From an uncultured Alphaproteobacteria bacterium (lineage in GTDB: Bacteria > Pseudomonadota > Alphaproteobacteria > RF32 > CAG-239): a stretch of 64,000 bases of DNA. The translations under genes and the position numbers were made by a program. This document shows, piece after piece, positions 7,783 through 63,989 of the stretch. The first letter of the stretch is position 1. Every line of letters begins with the position of its first letter. The DNA is taken from positions 2,523 to 66,522 of the forward strand of contig CALXTD010000005.1 in the NCBI GenBank assembly GCA_944391315.1, given 5' to 3'. The notes below the pieces were generated by a model. That model was given only the letters and a program-made list of their open reading frames with translations, searched no databases and had not been told where the DNA came from.

Positions 7783-9969
7783 TTACATAAAGGAGTAAGG
7801 ATCAATATCCACCTCAACCCGCACCCGAGGAGAATGAGGCACGCGCGAAAGCCATGTCCGAATAACTTCTTGGATATTAATAGTTCGCGCGGTTTTGAGC
7901 AGCAAGCGAAAACGATATTTTCCGCGCAGCATAAATATTGGCGCCGGAGCCGGACCAAGCGTAGTAATCATATCGGTATTTGGGGCACATTTTCCAAGAG
8001 AAACGGCTGTTTTTTCAACCATATCCTGATTATCTCCGGAAACAATCAGCGCCGCTAATTTTCCAAAAGGCGGCAACTTAAGCAACCGCCGGCTCTGTTT
8101 TTCAAGCTCAATAAAAGAAGCACGATTATTGTCTAATAAGGCTTTCAAGACCGCATTTTCAGGATAAAGCGTTTGCAAATAGACCACACCTTTTTTGGCA
8201 CCGCGACCGGCACGACCAGATACCTGAGAAAGCAGCTGATAAGTCCGCTCTGAGGCGCGCAAGTCACTTCCCATCAACCCCAAATCCGCATCAACGATTC
8301 CCACCACGGTCAAACTCGGAAAATTATGCCCTTTGGCTAGAATTTGCGTTCCGATAAGAATGTCAATTTCATGATTTTCCATCTTGCGAATAACTTCCGA
8401 AACCTCGGAAAGAGTTGAGGTAATATCGCTGGACAAGATACCGATTCGAGCCATCGGGAAACGCTTTGAAACTTCTTCGGCAATCCGCTCTACCCCAGGG
8501 CCGCAAGCCGTAAGCCCCTCTTCGGAACCACAAGACGGACAGCGTGGCGGAATAGAAGTCGTATAACCGCAGTGATGGCAAATCAACGACTTTGTTTTAC
8601 GATGCTCAGTCAGCCAAGAAGTGCAGTTTGGACATTGGATTCGGTGGCCGCAATCACGACAGATTGTTAAAGGTGCATACCCTCGCCGATTCAAAAACAG
8701 CATAGACTGCCCGCCGATTTCAAGATTTTCGGCCAAAGCCTTAACCAAGCTCGGCGACAACCATGCCACCGACATTTGCCCTTTGTCATTCGGAAATTTC
8801 TGCGGCTTGTCTTTTTTCAAGTCGATAATTTTGACATCAGGCAAAACCGCTTCGGCAAAACGAGAGGTCAATTTAACGCTGTCATATTTTCCCGATTCGA
8901 CATTACAAATCGTTTCCAAATCCGGCGTCGCGGTAGATAAAATCAGCGGAATTTGCTCCATTTTGGCACGTACCACCGCCATATCACGCCCTTGATAGTT
9001 CACCACATCTTCTTGCTTGAACGACGCATCATGACTTTCATCAATCACAATCAGCCCCAAATCGGCATAAGGCAAAAATAAAGACGAGCGTGCCCCGACC
9101 ACAACCTTAGCCCGATTCTCAATAATTCCTTTCCATGTATCGATTCTCTCGCGTGTTCCCAAGGCCGAATGCCAGCAAGCCGGCTTAACACCAAACCGCT
9201 TTTCAAAACGACCAAGCCATTGCGTGGTTAAAGAAATTTCAGGCACCATGATCAAAACCTGCTTACCTTGCGCCAAGGCATCGGCCACGGCTTCAAAATA
9301 AACCTCGGTCTTACCCGAACCGGTCACTCCGTCAAGCAAAGTCACCGAAAACCCCTGCCCGACTTTTGAACAAAGCAAATCAGCAGCATCTTGCTGCTCA
9401 GATGTCAAATTCACTTTTGAAAAATCAGGATTCGGAGTACCAAAATCGCGTTTCAAGGCCACCACCTCCGGCTCCAAGACACCGGCATCAATCATGGTTT
9501 TAATCACCGCCTGCCCAACACCGGCACCTTTGGCAATTTCCGCACGCGTGTAAGGATAATGCCGCAACAAATCCATCACTCTCCAGCGCGCATCAGAGTT
9601 TTTAAGCTTCGCCTCGGCTAAAGTTTTGCCCGAAAGTTTGTAAAGCGTTGTTGTTTTCTCATCATCAAACACTGCTTTAACACTCAGCACCATTTTTAGC
9701 ACCAAGCCCAAATAAGCCATATTATAGCTTGCCACAAATGCCACAAATTTCATTAACTCGGCAGATAATGGCGGCATATCAATCTTAGAGATAATCGGCT
9801 TGATTTTTGCCAGCGGCAAATCCGAATTTTTACCAAGCTTCCAGACCACACCGACCAAAACCTCACGCCCAAACGACACACGAACCATCTCGCCGAGAAC
9901 CACATCGCCCTCGACTTGATAGTCAAACACATCATTAAACGGCAGCGGAAGCAAAACGCCGACAATCAT
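7783..9969 (-). CDS. priA: primosomal replication-restart helicase PriA
   Basis: Walker A GVTGSGKTEVY, a DESHD box, and the Cys-rich zinc module CRDCGHRIQCPNCTSWL...CHHCGY...CPSCGS. Confidence 0.93.
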   Translation of the reverse strand: MIVGVLLPLPFNDVFDYQVEGDVVLGEMVRVSFGREVLVGVVWKLGKNSDLPLAKIKPIISKIDMPPLSAELMKFVAFVASYNMAYLGLVLKMVLSVKAVFDDEKTTTLYKLSGKTLAEAKLKNSDARWRVMDLLRHYPYTRAEIAKGAGVGQAVIKTMIDAGVLEPEVVALKRDFGTPNPDFSKVNLTSEQQDAADLLCSKVGQGFSVTLLDGVTGSGKTEVYFEAVADALAQGKQVLIMVPEISLTTQWLGRFEKRFGVKPACWHSALGTRERIDTWKGIIENRAKVVVGARSSLFLPYADLGLIVIDESHDASFKQEDVVNYQGRDMAVVRAKMEQIPLILSTATPDLETICNVESGKYDSVKLTSRFAEAVLPDVKIIDLKKDKPQKFPNDKGQMSVAWLSPSLVKALAENLEIGGQSMLFLNRRGYAPLTICRDCGHRIQCPNCTSWLTEHRKTKSLICHHCGYTTSIPPRCPSCGSEEGLTACGPGVERIAEEVSKRFPMARIGILSSDITSTLSEVSEVIRKMENHEIDILIGTQILAKGHNFPSLTVVGIVDADLGLMGSDLRASERTYQLLSQVSGRAGRGAKKGVVYLQTLYPENAVLKALLDNNRASFIELEKQSRRLLKLPPFGKLAALIVSGDNQDMVEKTAVSLGKCAPNTDMITTLGPAPAPIFMLRGKYRFRLLLKTARTINIQEVIRTWLSRVPHSPRVRVEVDIDPYSFM

Positions 9970-10083
9970 AAAAAAAACCTCACAAAAAATTTATCAAAGT
10001 ATAAAACAAAAGAACCAAAGAACCAAGCGTAATCTCACTTTTCCGCAAACACTTTTTTAACCAAACCGAGATAGAATAAACTC

Positions 10084-11016
10084 ATGAAACAGGAAATAAA
10101 ATACAATACCGACAATGAGTTAAAAGCCAAGATTGAGAAATGGCTTGAAGAATTGAGCTCAGAACGCCGCTATTCACCGCACACGATTGATGCCTACGCG
10201 CGCGATTTGTCATTCTTTACCGAATTTTTTGAAACGCCGCTAAGCTTAAAAAAACTAAGCCGACTTGATGTCAAAGACTTCAGAGCTTATATCAGCCGTC
10301 GTGCAGCCAAACATTTAAGCAAAAGCTCTCTAGCGCGAGAAATCTCAACTCTAAGAAGTTTTTTTCGCTGGCTGGATAAAAATGATATTGTTAAAAACAC
10401 CGCCATTGATGTGATTAACTCCCCAAGGCAAGACAAGATACTTCCGCGTTCATTAGATGTTTCACAAGCTTTTGAACTATTGAATGAATCCCCCAACTTT
10501 TCAAAAAAGAGCTGGACAGGCCTCCGTGACCGCGCCATTTTCACATTACTTTACGGCTGCGGCCTACGAATATCAGAGGCCTTATCCCTAAATTTTGGTG
10601 ACATTGAGCCAAACACTCAGCTTTTAAGAATTACCGGTAAAGGCAATAAAACAAGATTAGTTCCGATACTTTCTGAGGTTATTGACACTATCACGGCTTA
10701 TATCAACGAATGCCCTTATAATTTTAACCAAGGAGATGCTTTATTTTTGGGCACGCGCGGCGAACGTCTAAGCCCACGCATAATACAGCGCCAAATGCAA
10801 AAGATAAGAGCTTATCTCGGTTTACCGGATAATTTGACGCCCCATGCCCTAAGGCATTCCTTTGCCACACATTTACTGGCCGAAGGCACTGACCTACGCT
10901 CAATTCAAGAGCTTTTGGGCCATGCCTCATTAACCACCACCCAGCGCTATACAGATGTTGAAATTGAAACCTTGCAAAAAGAATATCGCAAAGCACGGCT
11001 TCTTGATGAAGAATAA
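10084..11016 (+). CDS. xerC: tyrosine site-specific recombinase, XerC/XerD family
   Basis: HALRHSFATHLL...LGHASLTTTQRYT contains the R-H-R-Y catalytic signature. The LGHAS variant resembles XerC more than XerD, so the symbol is tentative. Confidence 0.8.
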   Translation: MKQEIKYNTDNELKAKIEKWLEELSSERRYSPHTIDAYARDLSFFTEFFETPLSLKKLSRLDVKDFRAYISRRAAKHLSKSSLAREISTLRSFFRWLDKNDIVKNTAIDVINSPRQDKILPRSLDVSQAFELLNESPNFSKKSWTGLRDRAIFTLLYGCGLRISEALSLNFGDIEPNTQLLRITGKGNKTRLVPILSEVIDTITAYINECPYNFNQGDALFLGTRGERLSPRIIQRQMQKIRAYLGLPDNLTPHALRHSFATHLLAEGTDLRSIQELLGHASLTTTQRYTDVEIETLQKEYRKARLLDEE

Positions 11017-18022: not shown

Positions 18023-18099
18023 TGGGGCGAACGATCGGGCTCGAACCGACGACAACCGGTACCACAAACCGGGGCTCTACCAACTGAGCTACGTTCGCC
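18023..18099 (-). tRNA. tRNA-His (anticodon GTG) with encoded G-1, C73 and CCA
   Basis: Hand-folded cloverleaf: G(-1) GCGAACG TA GCTC AGTTGGTA GAGC C CCGGT TTGTGGT ACCGG TTGTC GTCGG TTCGAGC CCGAT CGTTCGC C CCA. Confidence 0.9.
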
Positions 18100-50006: not shown

Positions 50007-52148
50007 TTACAAATAGCTTACAATAGGGCAATATCCTCCACAATCAGCGTACGTTCTAAAATAAAGAACCGGATAGATTGTATAGCTTTGTGACCGAGAT
50101 GTACTCAATAAATATCCTCCACCTTTGGTACAGTACCACGCTTTATCATCATTTCCCCCATACGCAATTGCCGTCCAAAAAGAAGAATATGAAGATGATA
50201 CCATTTCACAATGCTTAGCCCCAGGAAGTTTCCAATGTCCTTTTGTTTCAGAAGCTCCCGACGGAGCATAATTAACAGCAATATTCACCGACGGAAAGTT
50301 TTCTGAAGAACTTTGATAACAAGAGGTACAATTTGATCCGTCAAGATGCTCAATAGACGCAGATGCATTTCCAGAACACCATTGAGAACCAACACTACAC
50401 GTGCTAGCGCTAAAACCGACAGGTCCCCATTGTGCAGTTCCTGCCGATTCTAAAGATATAAGATTAAATTTAAAATAACTTCCGACATCACGTATTTCAA
50501 TAATTTTTCCTAAAGCCACTTTTCCGCTTTCTAAAGAACGAGAACAGGTTCCGTCTTTATAATAAATATCCCCTTCATGACATGTATAATTGCATCTTTG
50601 ATTTTTATCGCTATAAACATATCCAGAATTACACTTATTATAACAATACTTATTACTACATTCTTCATAATCACAATCAGCATTTTCAGGACAAGAAGAA
50701 AGTTCACAACGATTAGGGCAATAACACCCTTTTGCATAATCCCAATTATATCCACCGGAACATTCACAAATACTATATTTTCCTTCACAAGAAGTTCCGT
50801 ATCCAACTTCATAACTTCCTGTACAGCTATATGTATAGTAAGAAGGATTGCACACACAACGAGATCCATCCCAAATTTCAGCGGCAGAACAACTGATTTC
50901 GCATTGGCTTCCGTTCCATGCATAATCTCCTGTACAGTAGCATCTTTCATATTTTCCGTTACACGAAGACCCATACGGGCTTTCGTGGCTGCCATTACAA
51001 CTGTAAGAGTAATAGTATGGATCACAAACACAACTACTTCCGTTCCATACTTCTTTGTACCCACAATTTACAATACAGCTATATCCGTTCCACGAGTAAG
51101 GAGAAGAACAATTACATGATTTATATTTTCCATTACAAGCTTCCCCAACGCCCCCGGCATAGCCTGAACCTGTGCAAGTATATTTGTAAGAACTTTCACA
51201 TTGAGCCGTACAAGTCTGTGTCGTTTCGTTCCAATCATAACCGGATTGACAGCCGGATTTGTAATAACGATTTGAACATTCCTCATAAGTGCAAGTGTAA
51301 GGGCTCGGACAAGAAGTTAAAGTTCCCAAGTTCGGACAAGGTTTGCAATTATCGTATTTTATTTGCGAACCGGATTGACAAGAACTTGCTCCGGCTGCCG
51401 GTCCCATTGAGCCGCAATTCAAAAATCCGTCGCAGGGGTTCATTTTAACTTTATATTTTGTCTGACCGTTACAATCCGTGCAAGCGGCACCGTCTTGAAC
51501 ATAGCCCTCGGGAATTGTCGTGTAGTCATAACCTTTACACAAATTGCAGCACGTTCCGAAAGTTTCATCGTATTTGCACTTGTCATTCGGATTTATCTGC
51601 CACCCGCTTTCGCAAGTATTGGTATAATCGGGATTAAGCTCTTTACAGGCACGTTCGGTATCTTTTTCACATGACGCGTATTTATTTCCGCAAGCCTGCC
51701 CGACGCCGTAATAAGGCGGCTCACAAGTTTTATAACCCGATGGGCAAACGCAACGGGCAAAATAATTGCTGTTATAAATACAAAATCCTTCTGGTGTTTC
51801 TCCGGCAGCACAAGAAGTCAGTCCATAACCTTCTTTGCGACAACGTTCGGCATCATTCAAATCATAATCAGGCGCTCCACCGGAGCCACCATTTCCGCCA
51901 CTGTTTTCATTATTACCAAACGCTTCGCCGCTACAAGCTGAGGTATCATTAATAAAGCAAACTGCAGCTAATTTAATCTCATCAGAAGAAGACAAGCTCG
52001 AGGAGGGAGAATAGAGGTGTGTGTGAAGTGTGTTGATAAGTCGTTCTCCACCCTCGGTAAAAGAAATATCTGCCATTGCGCTCATCGGCAACAATCCTGC
52101 CGCCGACAGCATTGCGGTTAAAACCGCATAATTACGAGAATTCAACAT
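50007..52148 (-). CDS. cysteine-rich secreted protein, 713 aa (paralog C): conserved N-domain, Cys repeats, DUF1566-like C-terminus
   Basis: ATG with an AAAGGTG RBS. Signal peptide MLNSRNYAVLTAMLSAAGLLPMSAMA. 68 Cys by my count. The N-terminal half aligns with the 271-aa neighbour. Confidence 0.8.
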   Translation of the reverse strand: MLNSRNYAVLTAMLSAAGLLPMSAMADISFTEGGERLINTLHTHLYSPSSSLSSSDEIKLAAVCFINDTSACSGEAFGNNENSGGNGGSGGAPDYDLNDAERCRKEGYGLTSCAAGETPEGFCIYNSNYFARCVCPSGYKTCEPPYYGVGQACGNKYASCEKDTERACKELNPDYTNTCESGWQINPNDKCKYDETFGTCCNLCKGYDYTTIPEGYVQDGAACTDCNGQTKYKVKMNPCDGFLNCGSMGPAAGASSCQSGSQIKYDNCKPCPNLGTLTSCPSPYTCTYEECSNRYYKSGCQSGYDWNETTQTCTAQCESSYKYTCTGSGYAGGVGEACNGKYKSCNCSSPYSWNGYSCIVNCGYKEVWNGSSCVCDPYYYSYSCNGSHESPYGSSCNGKYERCYCTGDYAWNGSQCEISCSAAEIWDGSRCVCNPSYYTYSCTGSYEVGYGTSCEGKYSICECSGGYNWDYAKGCYCPNRCELSSCPENADCDYEECSNKYCYNKCNSGYVYSDKNQRCNYTCHEGDIYYKDGTCSRSLESGKVALGKIIEIRDVGSYFKFNLISLESAGTAQWGPVGFSASTCSVGSQWCSGNASASIEHLDGSNCTSCYQSSSENFPSVNIAVNYAPSGASETKGHWKLPGAKHCEMVSSSYSSFWTAIAYGGNDDKAWYCTKGGGYLLSTSRSQSYTIYPVLYFRTYADCGGYCPIVSYL

Positions 52149-52182
52149 AATATCACCTTTCTTAGCTTGTCTTCACGAATCT

Positions 52183-52211
52183 AATATAGCATAAATTCGA
52201 TTTACTTGCAA
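52183..52211 (-). promoter_or_regulatory. candidate sigma70 promoter of the 713-aa Cys-rich gene
   Basis: On the minus strand: TTGCAA, 17 nt, TATATT. It is paralogous to the promoter at 54071-54099. Confidence 0.45.
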
Positions 52212-52242
52212 CAGGCATTTTTAAGAAAAGTGAAAGTGTGGC

Positions 52243-52271
52243 GCAAAAAAAGGAGCAACTAATTGCTCCTT
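52243..52271 (-). terminator. rho-independent terminator after the 300-aa Cys-rich gene
   Basis: On the minus strand: aaggagcaa-ttag-ttgctcctt followed by ttttttgcg. Confidence 0.6.
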
Positions 52272-52296
52272 ATACAATATCTTATTTTTTTAAAAC

Positions 52297-53199
52297 CTAA
52301 AAAGCGAGGACGGGGCGGAACTCGAGGTTGTTGTACTTAGTGTCGTCGAGCAAGCCGTAACTGGCGTCAAAGTTTGAGTACCACGCGTAGCCGTCATTGT
52401 ACTCGGACGACGACCAAGCGTAGGGGCTGTCTGTGAATTGTGTCCCATTTGCTCGGCTGAATCCTGTGTTTATCGCGTCTTGGTTATTATAATATGAGGT
52501 AAATATTCCTGCTGCCGGTAAGCACCAATCTCCCGCACTTGTTCCTTCCGTTTTATATTCATGTGCCGCCCATGCTGCCGGATAAGTGCTCTTATTGCCT
52601 GCTGCCAGTATCTTTTCTGAATTACCGCAACTATCATAATCTTTTGATGCCGCTTCTGCTGATGTTTTGTTCGGCAATGTCGAAATATCTGTACCATACC
52701 CGCCCCACTCATAGTTGCCTATTGACTTTAATGCCATCGCCCATCTTTTGCCATCACTGCCTATATAGACCACAACACCAATAGCCTTTTTTGTTCCTAC
52801 ATCATTATCATATCCTGATGATGAACAAGTTCTATCTTCGTACACTATAGCACCAATTTTGCATTCTGATGAAATTTCCACACAGCCCTTGCCGTCTTGC
52901 CATTCAAATCCTGCATAGCATTCACATTTCGCATATTTACCATTGCAATCAGCCCCAATTCCGGCCGCTTCAGCATATCCTCTTCCTATGCACAAATACG
53001 GAAAGTCAGCACATTCTCCGCCGCTGTTGCTTGGGCAATACCAATAACTTCCAAACGGGCATTTTAAGCCGCCGTCGCAAGAGCTTGTACTGGTATATCC
53101 CATTGCCGTACAGCTCGGGGTGGCGATACAGGCCGCATTTGCTTGCACAATGCCGCCACAAAGAACAAATGCTGTTGTTGTATAGAGTAATTTTTTCAT
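52297..53199 (-). CDS. cysteine-rich secreted protein, 300 aa (paralog B): one Cys module plus a DUF1566-like C-terminal domain
   Basis: I use the ATG at 53199 (RBS GGAGAAAGAAG, signal peptide MKKLLYTTTAFVLCGGIVQANA); the track start at 53241 would overlap the upstream gene. The C-terminus reads GDWCLPAAG...YAWSSSEY...AWYSNF...EFRPVLAF. Confidence 0.75.
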   Translation of the reverse strand: MKKLLYTTTAFVLCGGIVQANAACIATPSCTAMGYTSTSSCDGGLKCPFGSYWYCPSNSGGECADFPYLCIGRGYAEAAGIGADCNGKYAKCECYAGFEWQDGKGCVEISSECKIGAIVYEDRTCSSSGYDNDVGTKKAIGVVVYIGSDGKRWAMALKSIGNYEWGGYGTDISTLPNKTSAEAASKDYDSCGNSEKILAAGNKSTYPAAWAAHEYKTEGTSAGDWCLPAAGIFTSYYNNQDAINTGFSRANGTQFTDSPYAWSSSEYNDGYAWYSNFDASYGLLDDTKYNNLEFRPVLAF

Positions 53200-53219
53200 C
53201 TTCTTTCTCCTTTGTTTTC

Positions 53220-54035
53220 TTACATTGCGCAATAGTCGCAATAATCCGTGTAACCGCTTTTACATCCGGTGGCATACCACAAACCCGAACAGTCTTCATA
53301 TTCGCAGACTGAACCACTAGGGCAACTCGTATAAGTTCCTAAATTCGGACAAGCTTTGCAGTTATCATATTTCGTGATTGTGCCGGACAAACAAGTCGCG
53401 GCACCGGCTGCGCCGCCCATAGAACCGCAATCTTGAAACCCGTTACAAGGATTGATTTTGACTTTATATTTTGTTTGACCGTCACAATCGAGGCAGGCTT
53501 CGCCGTCTTGGATATAACCTTCTGGAATAGTGGTATAATCGTAACCGGCACCACAAGGTGTGCAGGTGCAAGACACATATTTTCCGTCGCAAGCCTCACC
53601 CACCCCGACATTCGGCTCTTCACAAGTCACATAATCACTCGGACAAGAAGCCACGCATTCGGAATAATACGGACCGTATGGGCATTTCTTGCCACCGACC
53701 TTATAACCGTCGGGGCAATCACTCACGGTATAACCTTCATTATAACAACGCTCATTGGGATTAAGGTCAAAACTTGGAACATCATCACTTGTCCCACTAC
53801 CAAAGCCAAAACCGGCGCAAGCTTCTGTATCATTAATAAAACAGACTGCTGCGATTTGAAATTTATCAGAAGAAGGCAAACTTGGTGACGAAGCGTAAAG
53901 GTGTGTGTGAAGTGTGTAGACAAGCTGCTCGTCACTCTTGATAACAGAATTATCAGCTCTCGCGCCAGTCGGCGATATTCCTACAGCCAAACAAAACGCC
54001 GCGGCCAGAACCGCCTTTTGTCGTGAGATAAACAT
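53220..54035 (-). CDS. cysteine-rich secreted protein, 271 aa (paralog A): conserved N-domain only
   Basis: ATG with an AGGAGAAG RBS. Signal peptide MFISRQKAVLAAAFCLAVGISPTGARA. YTLHTHLYASSPSLPSSDKFQIAAVCFINDTEAC aligns with INTLHTHLYSPSSSLSSSDEIKLAAVCFINDTSAC of the 713-aa protein. Confidence 0.75.
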   Translation of the reverse strand: MFISRQKAVLAAAFCLAVGISPTGARADNSVIKSDEQLVYTLHTHLYASSPSLPSSDKFQIAAVCFINDTEACAGFGFGSGTSDDVPSFDLNPNERCYNEGYTVSDCPDGYKVGGKKCPYGPYYSECVASCPSDYVTCEEPNVGVGEACDGKYVSCTCTPCGAGYDYTTIPEGYIQDGEACLDCDGQTKYKVKINPCNGFQDCGSMGGAAGAATCLSGTITKYDNCKACPNLGTYTSCPSGSVCEYEDCSGLWYATGCKSGYTDYCDYCAM

Positions 54036-55703: not shown

Positions 55704-56471
55704 ATGAATATTTTTCACATATCGGACATTCACTACGATACACAAAATCCCGAAGGCATAAAAAAATTACAAAAAATCATTCAAAACATAAACGACCAAA
55801 CAACAAAACCGGATGTTGTCGCCATCACCGGAGACTTAATCTGGAAATGCAATAAAGAACTTTACAAACCCTGCTTCCAAGAACTAAACAAATTGCAAGC
55901 TCCCTACCTCGTCATCACCGGAAATCACGACAAATCACAAGATTTGCAAAAGGCACTGAAACAATTTTCCCCCACTCATCCTCAATCAGAAGATAACCAC
56001 AAACTGCAATATGTCTGCGACAAATTTCCCGTTCGTATTATCGGACTTGATACATTTAAAGCAAACATCGGCGGCGGAGATTTAAGCGAGGAAAGCCGTC
56101 TCTGGCTGGAACAAAAACTTGAGGATAACTCCGAAGGTAAACCAACCATAATCTTAATTCATCAATACACACTACCCACAGGGTCAGGATTTTTTGACCG
56201 CAACGCTGCCCCTTGGTATAAGGAATTTAATAAAATAATTGAAAAACACAAAGATACGGTAAAACTCGTCCTCTGCGGCCATCTGCACAATTCACTGAGC
56301 TCTCAAATATCCACCGTTCCGATAATCTCAGGCTTTAGCACCAACTGGGGCGAAGAATTGCTTAATCCGTCCAATCCCGACCCCAAAAGAGATTTCAAAC
56401 GCCCGCTGTCTTACTTAATTCATCGCTGGGAAGATGAGCGCTTTACGACTTATGTCGCCGAACTTAGCTAA
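55704..56471 (+). CDS. calcineurin-like metallophosphoesterase (CpdA-like)
   Basis: The motif series ISDIHYD, TGDLIW, GNHD and GHLH. Confidence 0.8.
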   Translation: MNIFHISDIHYDTQNPEGIKKLQKIIQNINDQTTKPDVVAITGDLIWKCNKELYKPCFQELNKLQAPYLVITGNHDKSQDLQKALKQFSPTHPQSEDNHKLQYVCDKFPVRIIGLDTFKANIGGGDLSEESRLWLEQKLEDNSEGKPTIILIHQYTLPTGSGFFDRNAAPWYKEFNKIIEKHKDTVKLVLCGHLHNSLSSQISTVPIISGFSTNWGEELLNPSNPDPKRDFKRPLSYLIHRWEDERFTTYVAELS

Positions 56472-56564
56472 ATTTGTTACAATGTCGAAATCTTTTGTGT
56501 TTTGCCAAGCAAAATTTTTTGCTCTAATATCCGAAACAGTTAAAACATTTGTGAGGAAAATAAA

Positions 56565-57725
56565 ATGACCAATAAACCTGCAAAACCGATTATGCTTTTT
56601 GACTGCAAAACATCTCAAAATGTTTTTGGCAGAGAAAACTTGATGAAAGCCTTTGAAAAAATTTTGGATCACGGTGGCTATTGCCAAGGACCTGAAACCA
56701 AAGAACTCGATGAGAAATTGGCTGCTTATTGCGGCGCTAAATATTGCTCAACCTGCGGTTCCGGAACAGATGCCTTGACATTGGCTTTAATGGCTTGGGA
56801 CGTAAAACCGGGAGACGCCGTATTTGTATCTTCTTTCACCTTTGTTGCCTCAGCTGAAGCTCCGGTTTTGCTCGGTGCTACACCGATATTCGTTGACTCT
56901 GATCCGAATACCTACAACATGGATCCGGAAGATTTGCAACGTGCAATTGATGAAGTCAAAAAAGAAGGCAAGCTGAACTTAAAAGCTGTTGTTGCTGTTG
57001 ATATTTTCGGCTCCCCTTGCGACTATGACAAGATTATCAAAATCGCTCATGACAACGGCATGAAAGTTTTGGCCGATTCTTGCCAATCATTTGGTTCTGT
57101 TTACAAAGGCAAACACGCCGGAAACATTGCTGATATGACCGCCACATCTTTCTACCCGACCAAACCGCTCGGCGGCTATGGTGACGGCGGTGCCACATTC
57201 TCAAATACCAATGAAGAAAACGAGTTGGTAAAATCTTGCCGCGTTCACGGTATGAGCCCAGAAGACCACTATGACAATGTTCGCTTGGGCATGACTGGCC
57301 GTATGAACACATTCCAAGCTGCCGTTTTGTTACAAAAACTCTCAATTCTTGATCAAGAATTAAAAGATCGTTTCAGAGTAGCTTCTCGCTATGACAACGA
57401 ACTCGATTCTTATTTTAATAAACAAAAGATTTTGGATGGTTGCAAATCTGCTTATGCACTTTACACCATCACCTGCCCTGACAGAGATGAGTTAATGGCT
57501 TATCTGAAAGACAACGGCATTCCTTGCGGTGCATATTATCCTCGTCCGGTCAACACTCAAACCGCTTATGCAAAGTGGAACACCCGCAGCGTTCCTGTTT
57601 GTGAAAAATTATCCAAGACCGCATTGTCTATCCCGATGACCCCGTATTTGGATAACGAAGATCTTGACTACATCATCAAGACCATGAACGAGTTTGCCGC
57701 TCAGAAAAAAGACAAAGCCGCATAA
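56565..57725 (+). CDS. DegT/DnrJ/EryC1/StrS-family sugar aminotransferase
   Basis: PLP fold type I, with the Lys in SFYPTKPLG and family-wide similarity. Confidence 0.9.
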   Translation: MTNKPAKPIMLFDCKTSQNVFGRENLMKAFEKILDHGGYCQGPETKELDEKLAAYCGAKYCSTCGSGTDALTLALMAWDVKPGDAVFVSSFTFVASAEAPVLLGATPIFVDSDPNTYNMDPEDLQRAIDEVKKEGKLNLKAVVAVDIFGSPCDYDKIIKIAHDNGMKVLADSCQSFGSVYKGKHAGNIADMTATSFYPTKPLGGYGDGGATFSNTNEENELVKSCRVHGMSPEDHYDNVRLGMTGRMNTFQAAVLLQKLSILDQELKDRFRVASRYDNELDSYFNKQKILDGCKSAYALYTITCPDRDELMAYLKDNGIPCGAYYPRPVNTQTAYAKWNTRSVPVCEKLSKTALSIPMTPYLDNEDLDYIIKTMNEFAAQKKDKAA

Positions 57726-57745
57726 AGAGCAGCTTTGAAAATAAT

Positions 57746-57783
57746 AAATCCCTCTTTGAAAAATTTCAAAGAGGGATTTTTTT
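57746..57783 (+). terminator. rho-independent terminator after the aminotransferase gene
   Basis: aaatccctctttgaa-loop-ttcaaagagggattt followed by a T-run. Confidence 0.75.
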
Positions 57784-57909
57784 GACCTTTATCGACAACG
57801 TTATCCCGAAAAAAAATTTTGCTAAGGTAAGATAAAAATTAGTTTCAGCCCCGAAAACACCTATCTAAGCAACGCGACTTCTTGTCCCAATCAGAAAACA
57901 GCCAAGTGA

Positions 57910-58566
57910 TGCCCGCGGGGGCCCCCCGCTCCTCAATATGGTACTAATTTCTGGGGTAATTCTGACAATAATTACGGCTTTGGTTCTTCAAATATTCACG
58001 ACAATATTGAGAATAGAGAGAACCAAACCGAACAGAGTTATGGGTTGGAAAACAGTAACACACCCCAATGGAGACTGAACAACACAGCTTTAGTGCAAAA
58101 TAATAATGCGTATCTTGATTTTAATGGAAAGGAATTACGTTGGCATCAAAATAATAAGGTAACTAATTCTTGGAAAGCAATGTCGGGGCAGCCTGATTAT
58201 CAATGTAAAGAATATGACCGCGTAAAAAATAAAGGTCCATTACCAGAAGGAAAATGGTTGGTAAGACAATCTCAACATCAGAATTATGACCAAACTCAAA
58301 CGATATGGGACAAATTAAAAAATAATCTTGGAGGAGGTGAATGGAGAGGTGGAAAAGCTTCTTGGGGAAACAACCGCATTTGGTTGGAACCAGCGCCTGG
58401 AACAGATAATAAAGACCGCACAGGCCTCTCTATTCATGGTGGTAAAGAGTATGGTTCTGGTGGATGTATTGATTTAACAGATAAGATGGATGATTTCACC
58501 GATAAATTTAAGAGATATGGACAAGACATGATTCTTAATGTAAAATATGATAAAGATTGTTGGTGA
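57910..58566 (+). CDS. orphan polymorphic-toxin C-terminal cassette 1; toxin domain Tlde1/DUF2778-like (L,D-transpeptidase fold)
   Basis: The frame opens right after TGA at 57907 and has no in-frame ATG (TTG at 58045 is possible). LDFNGKELRWH...AMSGQPDY...NKGPLPEGKWLV...WLEPAP...RTGLSIHGGKEYGSGGCIDL...ILNVKY fits the DUF2778 pattern as I remember it. Confidence 0.6.
   Translation, partial: CPRGPPAPQYGTNFWGNSDNNYGFGSSNIHDNIENRENQTEQSYGLENSNTPQWRLNNTALVQNNNAYLDFNGKELRWHQNNKVTNSWKAMSGQPDYQCKEYDRVKNKGPLPEGKWLVRQSQHQNYDQTQTIWDKLKNNLGGGEWRGGKASWGNNRIWLEPAPGTDNKDRTGLSIHGGKEYGSGGCIDLTDKMDDFTDKFKRYGQDMILNVKYDKDCW
57941..58032 (+). repeat. conserved pre-toxin junction, copy 1
   Basis: It matches 58963-59054 (offset 1022 nt) with about 7 mismatches in 92 nt by hand alignment. 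Confidence 0.9.
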
Positions 58567-58629
58567 TTTTTATTGTATCTTGGATAAATGCTCAATATAC
58601 TAAAAGCAAATTTAACCGAAGGTGTAATT

Positions 58630-58950
58630 ATGAAAAGAATTAAGCTGATACCTTTTTATCTCCTATTAGCTTTAAACGGATTTATAGTTTTTATATATAC
58701 TATAACATATCCAAAAGAAATGAGCAGCGACCAAATGCCTTGGAACTCTGAGGCTTTAGGTTGGGCATATGAAAACAAAATTAATTATACCATTTTTACA
58801 ATAATAGATATGCTGATAATAATTGCTCCTTCGGTTTATGCTTGGAAGAGCCATAAAACAAATCTGGTAAAATCCTATATAGTACTATCCATTCCTGCTT
58901 TTGTTTATCTTATACGCTATATATATTTTACTAACTTTTTTAACATATAA
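58630..58950 (+). CDS. candidate immunity protein 1 (small 3-TM membrane protein)
   Basis: ATG at 58630 with a GAAGGTG RBS. 106 aa, very hydrophobic, immediately downstream of toxin cassette 1. Confidence 0.5.
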   Translation: MKRIKLIPFYLLLALNGFIVFIYTITYPKEMSSDQMPWNSEALGWAYENKINYTIFTIIDMLIIIAPSVYAWKSHKTNLVKSYIVLSIPAFVYLIRYIYFTNFFNI

Positions 58951-58961
58951 ATATATCATAA

Positions 58962-59273
58962 AGTACAAACTTTTGGGGTAATTCTGACAATAACTATGGC
59001 TTTGGTTCTTCAAATATTCACGACAATATTGAGAATAGCGAGAACCAAACTGAATATGTGGGAAATTGCACTCCTTTTGGTATTGCCAAAAGAGCTTTTG
59101 AAGTGTATAAAATGTCTAATATCTCAAATCCTGTTAAAACCGGAAATAATGCAGTTGATTTTGCATTAGGAAAAATTCCAGCCATAAAAAAATGGAATAC
59201 TGGTTTTAATATAGGTAAATTGGGATTTGTAGCACAACAAACATATAATGATACATGTAAGCACAAAAATTAA
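58962..59273 (+). CDS. orphan polymorphic-toxin C-terminal cassette 2 (short, unknown toxin domain)
   Basis: The frame opens right after TAA at 58959 and has no in-frame ATG before the variable part (GTG at 59058 is possible). After the shared junction it diverges into a ~72-aa Gly/Asn/Lys-rich tail. Confidence 0.5.
   Translation, partial: STNFWGNSDNNYGFGSSNIHDNIENSENQTEYVGNCTPFGIAKRAFEVYKMSNISNPVKTGNNAVDFALGKIPAIKKWNTGFNIGKLGFVAQQTYNDTCKHKN
58963..59054 (+). repeat. conserved pre-toxin junction, copy 2
   Basis: See copy 1. It encodes TNFWGNSDNNYGFGSSNIHDNIENSENQTE. Confidence 0.9.
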
Positions 59274-59318
59274 TAACCAGATTTTTTTGCAAAAGCTATT
59301 ATAAAGGAGATAATATTT

Positions 59319-59741
59319 ATGAAAACGTTTGCTTGGCATGTTTTAATTTTAGGTGGATTTTACTTTATTATCTCCTTGCTCTCTTTTTTTCCGGAAAATT
59401 CCATTTTAAATACCATAAACATAGCGGCATTTATTATTTTTGCCTTAATGTTTTTCATTTTATGCTTTAAGAAAAAATATAATTTCATCAGCAGATTTCA
59501 AAACAAATTTACTAAAACAAGTATTTATTTGGCCGCTCTCGGTATTGGTGAATATTTTAGTATTATATTCATCACTATTCCCGGAACAATTTATGGATAC
59601 AAAGTCGCTATGGCACAGTATAACGGAGAGGAAATACCTTTAGCACCAATAAGCTATTTAAATAACATCTATTCCATATATCTTATTATTTCATGCATTT
59701 CCCTTATCTGGGCAACCTATAAAAGCTTTATAAAAAAATAG
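59319..59741 (+). CDS. candidate immunity protein 2 (4-TM membrane protein)
   Basis: ATG with an AAGGAG RBS. 140 aa, four hydrophobic segments, directly downstream of cassette 2. Confidence 0.5.
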   Translation: MKTFAWHVLILGGFYFIISLLSFFPENSILNTINIAAFIIFALMFFILCFKKKYNFISRFQNKFTKTSIYLAALGIGEYFSIIFITIPGTIYGYKVAMAQYNGEEIPLAPISYLNNIYSIYLIISCISLIWATYKSFIKK

Positions 59742-59794
59742 ATTTTTATTATCATAAATATACGCAGCCCCAACTTTCTAAACATCTTTATTGA

Positions 59795-59857
59795 ATTTTG
59801 CGCCGCCAAATGCTCGGCCTTTCACAAGAAAAATTAGCCGCCGCGCTTTCAGCTTAG
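59795..59857 (+). pseudogene. possible relic of an XRE-family HTH gene
   Basis: A 20-codon open stretch between stops reads ILRRQMLGLSQEKLAAALSA, a classic XRE helix-turn-helix core. It is GC-richer than the neighbouring islet. Confidence 0.3.
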
Positions 59858-60588
59858 CTTTTTTTGAAGAGTTTTTTCTTAGATTTTGATTTTACTTTTG
59901 CCTCAAGCTTTTCCGGCTCAACAATTCCGCATGAAACAACAAACTTCAGTCCTTCTTCAACCGACATATCTAATTCAATCACATCTTTCTTCGGTACAAA
60001 GATTAAAAAACCGGAGGTTGGATTTGGCGTTGTCGGCACAAACACATTCAGCATTTCGTCTTGCAGTTTTTTCTTCACTTCACCTTTTGTTTCCGCCCCG
60101 AGGAAGCCGATAACCCATAGCCCCTTGCGCGGATATTCCAGCAAAACACATTTTGAAAAAGCTCTGTCCTGATTAGAAAAAATCGTCTCAAAAACTTTTT
60201 TCAATAATGAATAGACACTGGAGACAACCGGCAACCGCCGCACCATCCAATCGCCGAGATGCACAAAAAACCGCCCGACAAATCCGGCCGCAAACATCCC
60301 GACAACAATCAAAAACAGCACCAGCAAAATAATTCCGATCCCCGGAACCGTCATCGGAATATTATACCGCTCCATAATCTCGGGAGGAATCAACTTATGA
60401 ACCGAGTTGTCAATCCACAAAAAGATTTCATAGGCAATATAAAAGGTAATGGCCACCGGCGCCGTCACCAAAATTCCGGTGAAGAAATAAGCTCTGATTT
60501 TTTCACCCAGCTTCATAAAAACCGCGCGCTCACGTTCCAAACGAATACGTTTGATATTTTTAGCACGTTCCTTCACAACATCACTCAT
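59854..60588 (-). CDS. DUF502-family membrane protein
   Basis: YFFTGILVTAPVAITFYI and a second TM segment, then VPTTPNPTSGFL, typical of DUF502. The start abuts the recJ stop. Confidence 0.75.
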   Translation of the reverse strand: MSDVVKERAKNIKRIRLERERAVFMKLGEKIRAYFFTGILVTAPVAITFYIAYEIFLWIDNSVHKLIPPEIMERYNIPMTVPGIGIILLVLFLIVVGMFAAGFVGRFFVHLGDWMVRRLPVVSSVYSLLKKVFETIFSNQDRAFSKCVLLEYPRKGLWVIGFLGAETKGEVKKKLQDEMLNVFVPTTPNPTSGFLIFVPKKDVIELDMSVEEGLKFVVSCGIVEPEKLEAKVKSKSKKKLFKKS

Positions 60589-63461: not shown

Positions 63462-63989
63462 ATGAATGCAAGCGCAGTCGATTCGGCAATAGATGTAGCC
63501 TATTGGTTTTTTGACCGAGCAGAAGCCGACAAACAACTTCTTGAGGAAGAAAAACTTCAACCGCTTCTTTATTTATCCCAAGTATATTATGCGCGCACCT
63601 ATAACGGCGCGACATTGATGCCATCATTGTTCATCTGTGACGAAAACGGATTCTACGAACCCAATATCAAAAAGATATTAACACTCGGCCGCCCGTTTAT
63701 GCCGCGTGCAAAATTTGATAAAACCGTAAATAATTTTCTTGAAGAAATATGGGATAAATACGGCACCAGCAGCATTTCCTCGCTTGAAAAAACGGTCAAA
63801 GACAGCCTTCTTTATCGCAACAAATATAAAAAGAACACAAAAACCTTGGTTGAAAATAAAACAATAGTTGAATTTTTAAATAAGGATAGTAGAATATTTG
63901 AGAGCGAGGGAGAAAAAAACACCACCAAGGTTTTGCTCTCCCAAAACGGACCTGTCGTTGTCTCACGGTGGCAACCGAGAAAGATATAG
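63462..63989 (+). CDS. DUF4065 (Panacea/SocA-like) domain protein, possible antitoxin
   Basis: AIDVAYWFFDRA...KLQPLLYLSQVYYA...NGFYEPNI resembles the GepA/SocA pattern (dvA.yf...KLQKLLY...GPV.p.vY). AAGGAG RBS. Confidence 0.5.
   Translation: MNASAVDSAIDVAYWFFDRAEADKQLLEEEKLQPLLYLSQVYYARTYNGATLMPSLFICDENGFYEPNIKKILTLGRPFMPRAKFDKTVNNFLEEIWDKYGTSSISSLEKTVKDSLLYRNKYKKNTKTLVENKTIVEFLNKDSRIFESEGEKNTTKVLLSQNGPVVVSRWQPRKI

Follow-up and report, generated by a model that had tools for sequence, protein, structure and literature searches.

The 64-kb stretch of DNA analyzed here (hereafter the window; contig CALXTD010000005.1 of an uncultured Alphaproteobacteria bacterium) contains, at positions 57910-59741, a small islet made of two start-less reading frames, each followed by a gene for a hydrophobic protein (all coordinates are window positions). 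Our analysis makes it likely that the islet is what decay has left of a toxin-immunity array, and that the array belonged to a family of small polymorphic toxins carried by uncultured gut and rumen Alphaproteobacteria. An intact member of this family consists of an N-terminal domain of ~90 amino acids (the N-domain; mostly disordered, with one helix and an Asn/Gly/aromatic-rich tail), an N/Q-rich linker and a swappable C-terminal (CT) toxin. The corresponding module often begins with an XRE-type regulator gene, continues with the toxin gene and ends with one or two genes encoding small, putative immunity proteins of the membrane or periplasm. New CT-immunity pairs would enter by recombination in the conserved N-terminal coding sequence and displace the older pairs downstream, where these would persist as 5'-truncated orphans. 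In the window, the promoter and codons 1 to ~62 of the head gene, which encodes the toxin domain CT1, have given way to a 108-bp replacement; the second cassette, encoding CT2, is an ordinary displaced orphan, and the module that followed it has shrunk to a 110-bp stub. Because promoter, start codon and two-thirds of the N-domain are missing, neither toxin could presumably be made in a deliverable form.

The layout of the islet agrees with a preliminary description of this DNA, which had been drawn from the letters alone and had noted two start-less frames sharing a junction, hydrophobic downstream genes, an AT-rich composition and a strong upstream terminator. The first frame starts directly after a TGA stop codon (57907-57909) and runs uninterrupted from 57910 to 58566 (translation of 57790-58569). 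The second starts directly after a TAA stop codon (58959-58961) and runs uninterrupted from 58962 to 59273 (translation of 58932-59276). The earliest in-frame ATG, GTG or TTG codons are TTG 58045 in the first frame and GTG 59058 in the second. Both frames carry a copy of the same junction sequence (57941-58032 and 58963-59054), alike over 88-92 nt with ~93% identity and encoding the common peptide TNFWGNSDNNYGFGSSNIHDNIEN[R/S]ENQTE; beyond it, the two frames are unrelated by sequence comparison. A 65-nt core of the junction had 2 exact matches in the window versus 0 in 100 shuffles, and no further junction copy or other family member was found anywhere in the 64 kb. Each frame is followed on the + strand by a small hydrophobic open reading frame (ORF), named imm1 (58630..58950) and imm2 (59319..59741), and Shine-Dalgarno-like sequences, GAAGGTG and AAGGAG, precede them. 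The GC content is 0.27-0.31 over 58400-59800 and 0.40-0.47 in the flanks. The left border is a hairpin terminator (57746..57779, unstranded) with a 15-bp stem and a T-run, which closes the DegT-type aminotransferase gene directly upstream of the islet (56565-57725).

A search with cassette 1, the first of the two frames, returned many small proteins and no giant toxins. Among the matches, 83 proteins have one common N-terminal sequence, then an N/Q-rich linker and then unrelated C-termini. The N-domain consensus, with a mean column identity of 70%, reads MxxYxKYKSPLGYQTGENQIDSYGVDHSGFSTRDELEYQFARQNKENQLIQNYNNQGITKNYPQYGTNFWGNSDNNYGFGSSNIHDNIEN. The preliminary description had taken the junction for the pre-toxin motif of a giant toxin and expected a large parent protein with a delivery domain of the PAAR, Rhs, TPS or LXG type. 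Neither expectation was borne out: judging by the alignments, the junction is the last third of the ~90-aa domain, and this domain stands at the N-terminus of small proteins. Against 1.8 billion representative proteins (clusters at 50% identity), the N-domain profile retrieved 266 clusters, 200 of them below 1e-10. In these matches, the N-domain nearly always begins within the first few residues of proteins ~60 to 740 aa long. Full-length family members have a median length of 266 aa and none exceeds ~770 aa, the largest seen being 740-768 aa. Searches of Pfam, NCBIfam and PDB sequences gave no significant match to the N-domain and revealed in it no recognizable delivery module (TPS/FHA, Rhs, PAAR, LXG, MafB-N etc.). 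The best PDB match, an endoglucanase with E=2, was dismissed as chance, and a phage origin was set aside after the N-domain alignment found no relative among IMG/VR viral contigs. In the literature on Tlde1/DUF2778, polymorphic toxins and RF32 gut Alphaproteobacteria, we found no description of the N-domain. The earlier suggestion of an unrecognized family thus stands for the N-domain; it does not stand for CT1, which resembles the recognized Tlde1/YkuD-like enzymes (see below).

The presence of junction copies in related genomes, which had been proposed as a check of the initial idea, was confirmed. Scanning one genome per GTDB species, we found 271 loci, with 3-6 or more separate ones in individual metagenome-assembled genomes (MAGs). 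Nearly all of them come from MAGs of gut or rumen Alphaproteobacteria that have not been cultured; the records are titled, for example, "uncultured Alphaproteobacteria", "Azospirillum sp. 51_20" or "uncultured Rhodospirillales", or are RUG/RGIG bins from the rumen. Comparison of the N-domain consensus with the loci (tblastn) identified ~80 full-length starts and 26 clear 5'-truncated copies. The latter start at N-domain residues 10-70, all on the same strand as the full-length genes, and 21 of the 26 sit 1.2-7 kb downstream of a full-length gene. Many of the truncated copies keep open CT frames of 170-306 codons, and some are degenerate, with 4-29 open codons. When all ORFs of 80 loci were clustered, the neighbors that recurred were an XRE/HTH regulator gene, which in 19 loci directly precedes the toxin, and a varied set of small proteins with membrane segments or signal peptides. 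Genes for secretion, spike or lysis functions did not recur within +/-8-10 kb of these 80 loci. The large neighbors vary by locus, and the annotated ones mostly have housekeeping roles (ATP synthase, Mur ligase, AnmK, TsaD, PPDK, PFOR, FtsK, Rho). A FliI-type flagellar ATPase is found at most 8 kb away in 4 loci and looks like common synteny. Similarly, a gene for a ~1066-aa autotransporter (Pfam Autotransporter beta-domain) lies a few kb from the toxin in 4 loci, for example at L020 2191-5391, and this is probably synteny as well.

The C-termini attached to the N-domain are diverse, with at least 10 different Pfam CT types and many unannotated CTs. Counted by Pfam among 92 representative members, the repertoire includes GH108 (11 members), PG_binding_3 (6), VgrG3-like C-terminal muramidase, SAA-like and Tlde1 (4 each), YkuD and SLT (2 each), and Pesticin, GH46, Phage lysozyme and PBECR2 nuclease (1 each, the last a weak match). 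By these domain assignments, the annotated payloads are almost entirely peptidoglycan-directed and periplasm-acting. The largest members, L028 338-2644 (768 aa) and P0250 (740 aa), carry the N-domain followed by ~670 aa with a weak match to PBECR2, a barnase/EndoU/colicin E5-D-like nuclease domain; this match is the sole hint of a cytoplasm-acting payload. Matches to serum amyloid A (SAA, PF00277), down to E=1.8e-17, occur among the CTs of P0058, P0072, P0074 and others and at L085 2986-3441. From this domain arrangement, a bacterial SAA-like domain apparently serves as a polymorphic-toxin payload.

Cassette 1 of the window (57931..58566, + strand) consists of N-domain residues ~63-96, the N/Q-rich linker and CT1 (~58120-58566). 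The full-length family protein P0001 (271 aa) matches cassette 1 at 97% identity and has ~60 extra N-terminal residues. Profile searches of the CTs and small ORFs, also proposed earlier, were informative for CT1 only, which matched Tlde1_dom of Pfam below threshold (E=5e-6, 27.4 bits, cut-off 30.1); its close homologues carry precomputed PF10908 and/or PF03734 matches. In an AlphaFold2 (AF2) model of P0001, the CT domain has a pLDDT >90. The best PDB matches of CT1 in Foldseek are Salmonella Tlde1a structures (7uo8, 7uma and 7uo3, E=3e-8 to 4e-7; target TM 0.62-0.65 for 7uo8/7uma), followed by YkuD-type L,D-transpeptidases. The His-x9-Cys spacing of Tlde1a is kept: IHGGKEYGSGGCI in CT1 aligns with IHDSTKGYSHGCI in Tlde1a, i.e. 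with H121/C131, the catalytic residues of that enzyme (10.1101/2020.02.18.954545), and the motif with the predicted catalytic His and Cys of CT1 is IHGGKEYGSGGC. H129 of Tlde1a, which lies in an S-H-G-C motif, is replaced by Gly in CT1 (SGGC). Since the model has a Tlde1a-like fold and His-x9-Cys is retained, CT1 is predicted to be a Tlde1-like L,D-carboxy/transpeptidase. CT1-like Tlde1 domains are also found in the same bacterial group behind PG_binding_1 (P0005, 239 aa) and behind an unrelated leader (P0009, 227 aa), at loci L086-L088 (~9551-10720) and L089 (10001-10684), each followed by 105-119-aa genes. The domain is therefore shuffled among at least three kinds of N-terminus.

A simpler account would be that the two frames are ordinary small genes translated from TTG 58045 and GTG 59058 rather than toxin fragments. 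These codons are the earliest starts available, and gene callers gave similar short products in other assemblies (P0003, P0261, P0262). We nevertheless regard this account as very improbable. Upstream of both starts, the reading frame continues with a sequence that matches the N-domain consensus at 97-100% identity and must therefore have been inherited from a longer gene, and no Shine-Dalgarno sequence precedes TTG 58045. Moreover, Tlde1 is toxic only if sent to the periplasm (10.1101/2020.02.18.954545), and a cytoplasmic Tlde1 domain without an export signal cannot reach its periplasmic substrate.

Cassette 2 (58962..59273, + strand) consists of junction copy 2, which corresponds to N-domain residues 67-96 with 97% identity to the consensus (tblastn), and of CT2, ~70 aa long with two conserved Cys. 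A full-length N-domain-CT2 protein is on record (P0077, 168 aa). CT2 alone retrieved only 4 homologous clusters and had no match in Pfam or NCBIfam, and its AF2 model was unusable (pLDDT 41). By its position and its truncated N-domain, cassette 2 is read as a classic displaced orphan. The full-length counterparts of both cassettes, P0001 for CT1 and P0077 for CT2, together with downstream genes that co-vary with the CT (see below), uphold the initial interpretation of 5'-truncated toxin modules that keep a conserved junction. However, the initial view of both cassettes as orphans applies only to cassette 2.

That cassette 1 had a different history follows from two further alleles of the site, L084 and L085. 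Both are independent metagenome contigs in which the site is bordered by the DegT-type gene on its left side and by the DUF502 (59854-60588 in the window, - strand) and recJ genes on its right. In L085, where the upstream gene matches the DegT_DnrJ_EryC1 family, the order is DegT, the full-length P0001 toxin gene with CT1, imm1 and an orphan with an SAA-type CT directly after junction 2. In place of the 315 bp of L085 that cover the toxin promoter region and the first ~60 codons, the window contains an unrelated segment of 108 bp, GC-rich at its 3' end (57823..57930, + strand), as delimited by the window/L084/L085 alignment and BLAST breakpoints. This segment is common to the window and L084 only (97.6% identity), with no other match among 90 loci, and an Rfam search for RNA elements in the segment or the islet gave sub-threshold noise on the terminator only. 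Because L085 holds an intact gene at the same DegT site, the allele comparison identifies cassette 1 as the array's own head gene, beheaded in place. Window positions 57931-59054 are 98.2% identical to L085, as against 93.6% for the left-flanking DegT region at 56340-57822 (Fisher p=3e-9). This difference in divergence indicates a recent lateral exchange of the CT1-imm1 block between lineages.

The second allele, L084, has the same beheaded boundary as the window and flanks 95.6% identical to it, yet carries a single junction fused straight to CT2 and is without window positions 58033-58962. By alignment, the difference would be explained by a junction-to-junction deletion in L084 or by an insertion in the window lineage. 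L084 is also without 59362-59737, which is most of imm2. The natural alleles differ exactly at the junction repeats, which directly shows that the junctions serve as recombination substrates. An ATG comes into frame at L084 1267-1635 (window 57909-58032 plus 58963-59273) through loss of 1 nt from the GC-rich tract, and the resulting ORF encodes a 122-aa protein (P0055) with a truncated N-domain and CT2. In the same allele imm2 retains only ~14 codons, which suggests that a carrier comes to no harm from CT2 when the N-domain is incomplete.

Traces of another module remain at the right-hand edge of the islet. The remnant at 59722..59833 (+ strand), which abuts the DUF502 gene, consists of module-start sequence and an XRE fragment. 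Its first 78 bp (59722-59799) are 95% identical to the module-start sequence of L001/L006 (4241-4317) and L005 (8441-8517), and 59798-59833 encodes a fragment of ~12 codons, LRRQMLGLSQEK, of an XRE/HTH regulator gene (tblastn). A further module was therefore deleted here, leaving a stub of ~110 bp. At module boundaries, upstream of the XRE gene, the 20-nt motif AAACATCTTTATTGAATTTT (window 59780-59799) recurs (L001/L006 703, 2614 and 4298; L004 7792; L005 6467 and 8498; L085 3802), and in L001, L004 and L005 it precedes the start codon of the full-length toxin by 203 bp. The motif could act as an operator, as part of a promoter or as a landmark for recombination.

These alleles bear directly on whether the islet is a functional silent store, as first proposed, in which start-less cassettes are kept for recombination through the 92-nt junction into a full-length toxin gene elsewhere, thereby switching the toxin and immunity type. 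Related MAGs do hold 3-6 or more loci with full-length genes whose junctions are 84-92% identical at the DNA level, CT1 and CT2 both also head full-length genes, the alleles differ exactly at junctions, and the many open CT frames among the orphans of the family (170-306 codons) would suit such a store. On the other hand, there is no full-length copy within the 64-kb window, cassette 1 arose by beheading in place and not by storage, and no recombinase or invertase gene was found near the islet. Moreover, the array is eroded at both ends and further reduced in L084, with its immunity genes lost, and some orphans of the family are clearly degenerate (4-29 open codons). We therefore consider a working store unlikely and favor decay of a former array. 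The state of cassette 1 weighs to some extent against simple decay: its frame is intact over 218 codons and the ratio of non-synonymous to synonymous rates (dN/dS) is ~0.3, calculated from only 14 changes, so that it is not clearly a neutral pseudogene.

The imm1 product has 106 aa, or 120 aa from ATG 58588, the start favored by gene callers, and hydropathy indicates a polytopic membrane protein with at least 2-3 hydrophobic segments. The imm2 product (140 aa) has four hydrophobic segments by the same measure and is likewise predicted to be polytopic. Neither matched a family in Pfam or NCBIfam, and weak matches to NrfE and RRP5 were dismissed as hydrophobic noise. Homologues of imm1 follow CT1-type toxins in L005, L006, L025, L049, L050 and L085, with at least 71-77% amino acid identity, and are found only after CT1 types. 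Similarly, homologues of imm2 are found only beside CT2-type cassettes (62% identity in L026 and 59% in L014), and other CT types are followed by diverse small membrane-protein genes. Because toxin type and downstream gene co-vary in this way, we propose a cognate immunity role for imm1 and imm2. With intact frames and ribosome-binding sites, both genes probably continue to confer protection against CT1- or CT2-bearing kin.

It is possible, if somewhat doubtful, that such protection is what maintains the islet, with selection keeping self-expressed imm1 and imm2 against CT1- and CT2-armed neighbors and the toxin fragments being passengers. Compared with L085, imm1 has one substitution in 321 bp, and CT1 has 7 synonymous and 7 non-synonymous differences, 14 in all, over 636 bp (Fisher p=0.026). 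These small counts suggest, at the sequence level, that the toxin fragment is under looser constraint than imm1. Both genes also have their own Shine-Dalgarno sequences and promoter-like hexamers. A precedent comes from type VI secretion systems (T6SS), for which two reports describe orphan immunity genes protecting against non-kin effectors (PMC10539506, PMC12483513). However, promoter-like matches before imm1 and imm2 are no commoner than chance (16 found versus 10.8 +/- 3.2 in shuffled sequence), and L084 is without imm1 and has a truncated imm2. The latter observation also tells against any general claim that immunity is retained in the remnant, since such retention is not universal at the locus.

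Elsewhere in the window, no secretion-system gene was found among the 10 ORFs checked. The sole tRNA (18023-18098) is far from the islet. Three consecutive ORFs of 713, 314 and 271 aa at 50007-54035 (- strand) are all without a Pfam match; the 271-aa product (53220-54035, - strand) is very Cys-rich and has a signal-peptide-like N-terminus. At the edge of the window (63462-63989, + strand), a 175-aa ORF has no Pfam match at E<=1e-3.

How intact members of the family would be delivered can be approached from the properties of the N-domain and its payloads. Our tentative preference is for a diffusible bacteriocin resembling colicin M and pesticin, in which the disordered N-domain would drive import across the outer membrane of the target cell into the periplasm. 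The proteins are small, their annotated payloads act almost only in the periplasm and one has a Pesticin-family domain. In the P0001 model, the N-domain is mostly coil with one helix (pLDDT 65-81), and the junction and linker are disordered (pLDDT <55). The junction and linker consist of 52% N/Q/G/S/T and 12% aromatic residues, a composition that recalls colicin translocation domains. The absence of linked secretion genes is also consistent with this route, as are the putative immunity proteins, which would reside in the membrane as in the ColM family. Several points count against it. The ~90 aa and low-complexity linker that precede the CT contain no recognizable receptor-binding domain, TonB box or Tol box, and the N-domain profile matches no colicin or pyocin chain in the PDB. 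The presence of several paralogues per genome with one N-domain is more typical of secretion-system cargo classes. In addition, ~60% of the CTs are unannotated, so that the view of an all-periplasmic repertoire is incomplete.

The paralogues lead to another explanation, namely that the N-domain is a cargo-loading signal for a contact-dependent secretion system, with T6SS as the obvious candidate, and that the cassettes of the window are T6SS-type effectors put out of action. Structurally, CT1 comes closest to a T6SS effector, Tlde1a, four members have the VgrG3-like C-terminal muramidase domain, and Tlde1 and VgrG3-C-type muramidases are T6SS effectors. Nevertheless, no recurrent secretion-system gene was found around the 80 loci and none at all among the 10 window ORFs checked, nearly all annotated CTs are of periplasm-acting kinds, and the prediction for the N-domain is a largely disordered chain and not a folded adaptor. 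T6SS effector classes usually also include nucleases and NADases. Short N-terminal delivery domains are known to define polymorphic T6SS effector classes whose genes often lie as orphans apart from the T6SS cluster, such as PIX (10.1101/2023.07.16.549128), and the multiple paralogues per genome would fit such a class. On balance, we find loading onto a T6SS or a similar system rather doubtful, and retain the bacteriocin route as our working preference. In either case the N-domain could represent an undescribed delivery route, a suggestion that we make with reserve: it would either define a new class of minimal protein bacteriocins, in which a short, mostly disordered import domain suffices to bring peptidoglycan-degrading enzymes through a competitor's outer membrane and no receptor-binding domain is needed, or act as a new signal for export or loading, read by an apparatus that in these bacteria has so far not been connected with interbacterial killing.

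The locus itself is a dead remnant, yet it points to a large and apparently uncurated family. Within a little-known group of uncultured Alphaproteobacteria from gut and rumen, this family seems to form the principal set of toxins. With three natural alleles at one site, the gain, loss and beheading of cassettes through junction recombination can be seen here with unusual clarity. The cell-wall payloads suggest a delivery that ends in the periplasm. Defining the N-domain would open the way to a systematic search for new domains of toxins and immunity proteins, among them SAA-like ones and small CTs of no known type, and the domain could provide either a minimal module for import through the outer membrane, of use in engineered lysin-type antibacterials, or a novel secretion signal.

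The overall kind of system, a polymorphic toxin-immunity system with orphan cassettes, is well known (PMC3482391). What is new is the N-domain and the family that it defines: very small proteins without a recognizable delivery module, with almost purely cell-wall payloads, in an uncultured gut and rumen group of Alphaproteobacteria. As in the orphan CT-immunity arrays of CdiA, Rhs and MafB (PMC3482391), the C-terminal toxin is hypervariable and joined to a conserved N-terminal part, its cognate immunity gene lies next to it, cassettes truncated at the 5' end but retaining the junction are found on the same strand downstream of a full-length gene, and diversification proceeds by junction recombination. 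In contrast to those systems, the conserved part is ~90 aa and makes up the whole non-toxin portion, and the proteins have 100-770 aa (median 266) and not thousands. Also unlike them, the family is without VENN, PxxxxDPxGL, Rhs/YD, FHA, PAAR, LXG or linked secretion genes, and in the window even the head gene is truncated.

The payload and the modular architecture invite three narrower comparisons. CT1 shares with Tlde1/Tae5 (DUF2778, PF10908), the L,D-carboxy/transpeptidase effectors of the Salmonella T6SS (PMC9638812; 10.1101/2020.02.18.954545), the same predicted fold (Foldseek E=3e-8), the His-x9-Cys spacing and an expected target in periplasmic peptidoglycan. It differs in scoring below the Pfam cut-off (27.4 vs 30.1 bits), in having Gly as the H129 equivalent and in sitting behind the 90-aa N-domain and linker outside any T6SS context, whereas Tlde1 stands alone. 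The partners differ too, imm1 encoding a polytopic membrane protein and Tldi1 (DUF2195) being soluble, periplasmic and Sec-exported.

Members of the colicin M family and pesticin (PMC5821083) are likewise small proteins (170-430 aa) with a periplasm-acting C-terminal cell-wall toxin and a disordered N-terminal region, which is also predicted for the present family, and one protein of the present family has a Pesticin-family domain. They too are polymorphic through domain recombination and have no linked secretion apparatus, and the immunity partners of the colicin M family are cytoplasmic-membrane proteins of varied topology. Unlike them, the family described here shows no ColM domain, TonB box, separate receptor-binding domain or similarity to colicin and pyocin PDB chains, and it occurs as many chromosomal paralogues rather than as a plasmid-borne single copy. 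Finally, the N-terminal classes of T6SS effectors (MIX, FIX, RIX and PIX; for PIX, 10.1101/2023.07.16.549128) similarly join a short common N-terminal domain to unrelated effectors in scattered orphan effector-immunity pairs. The N-domain has no detectable homology to these classes and is predicted to be largely unstructured, and its family is found in uncultured gut Alphaproteobacteria, not in Vibrionales or Enterobacterales.

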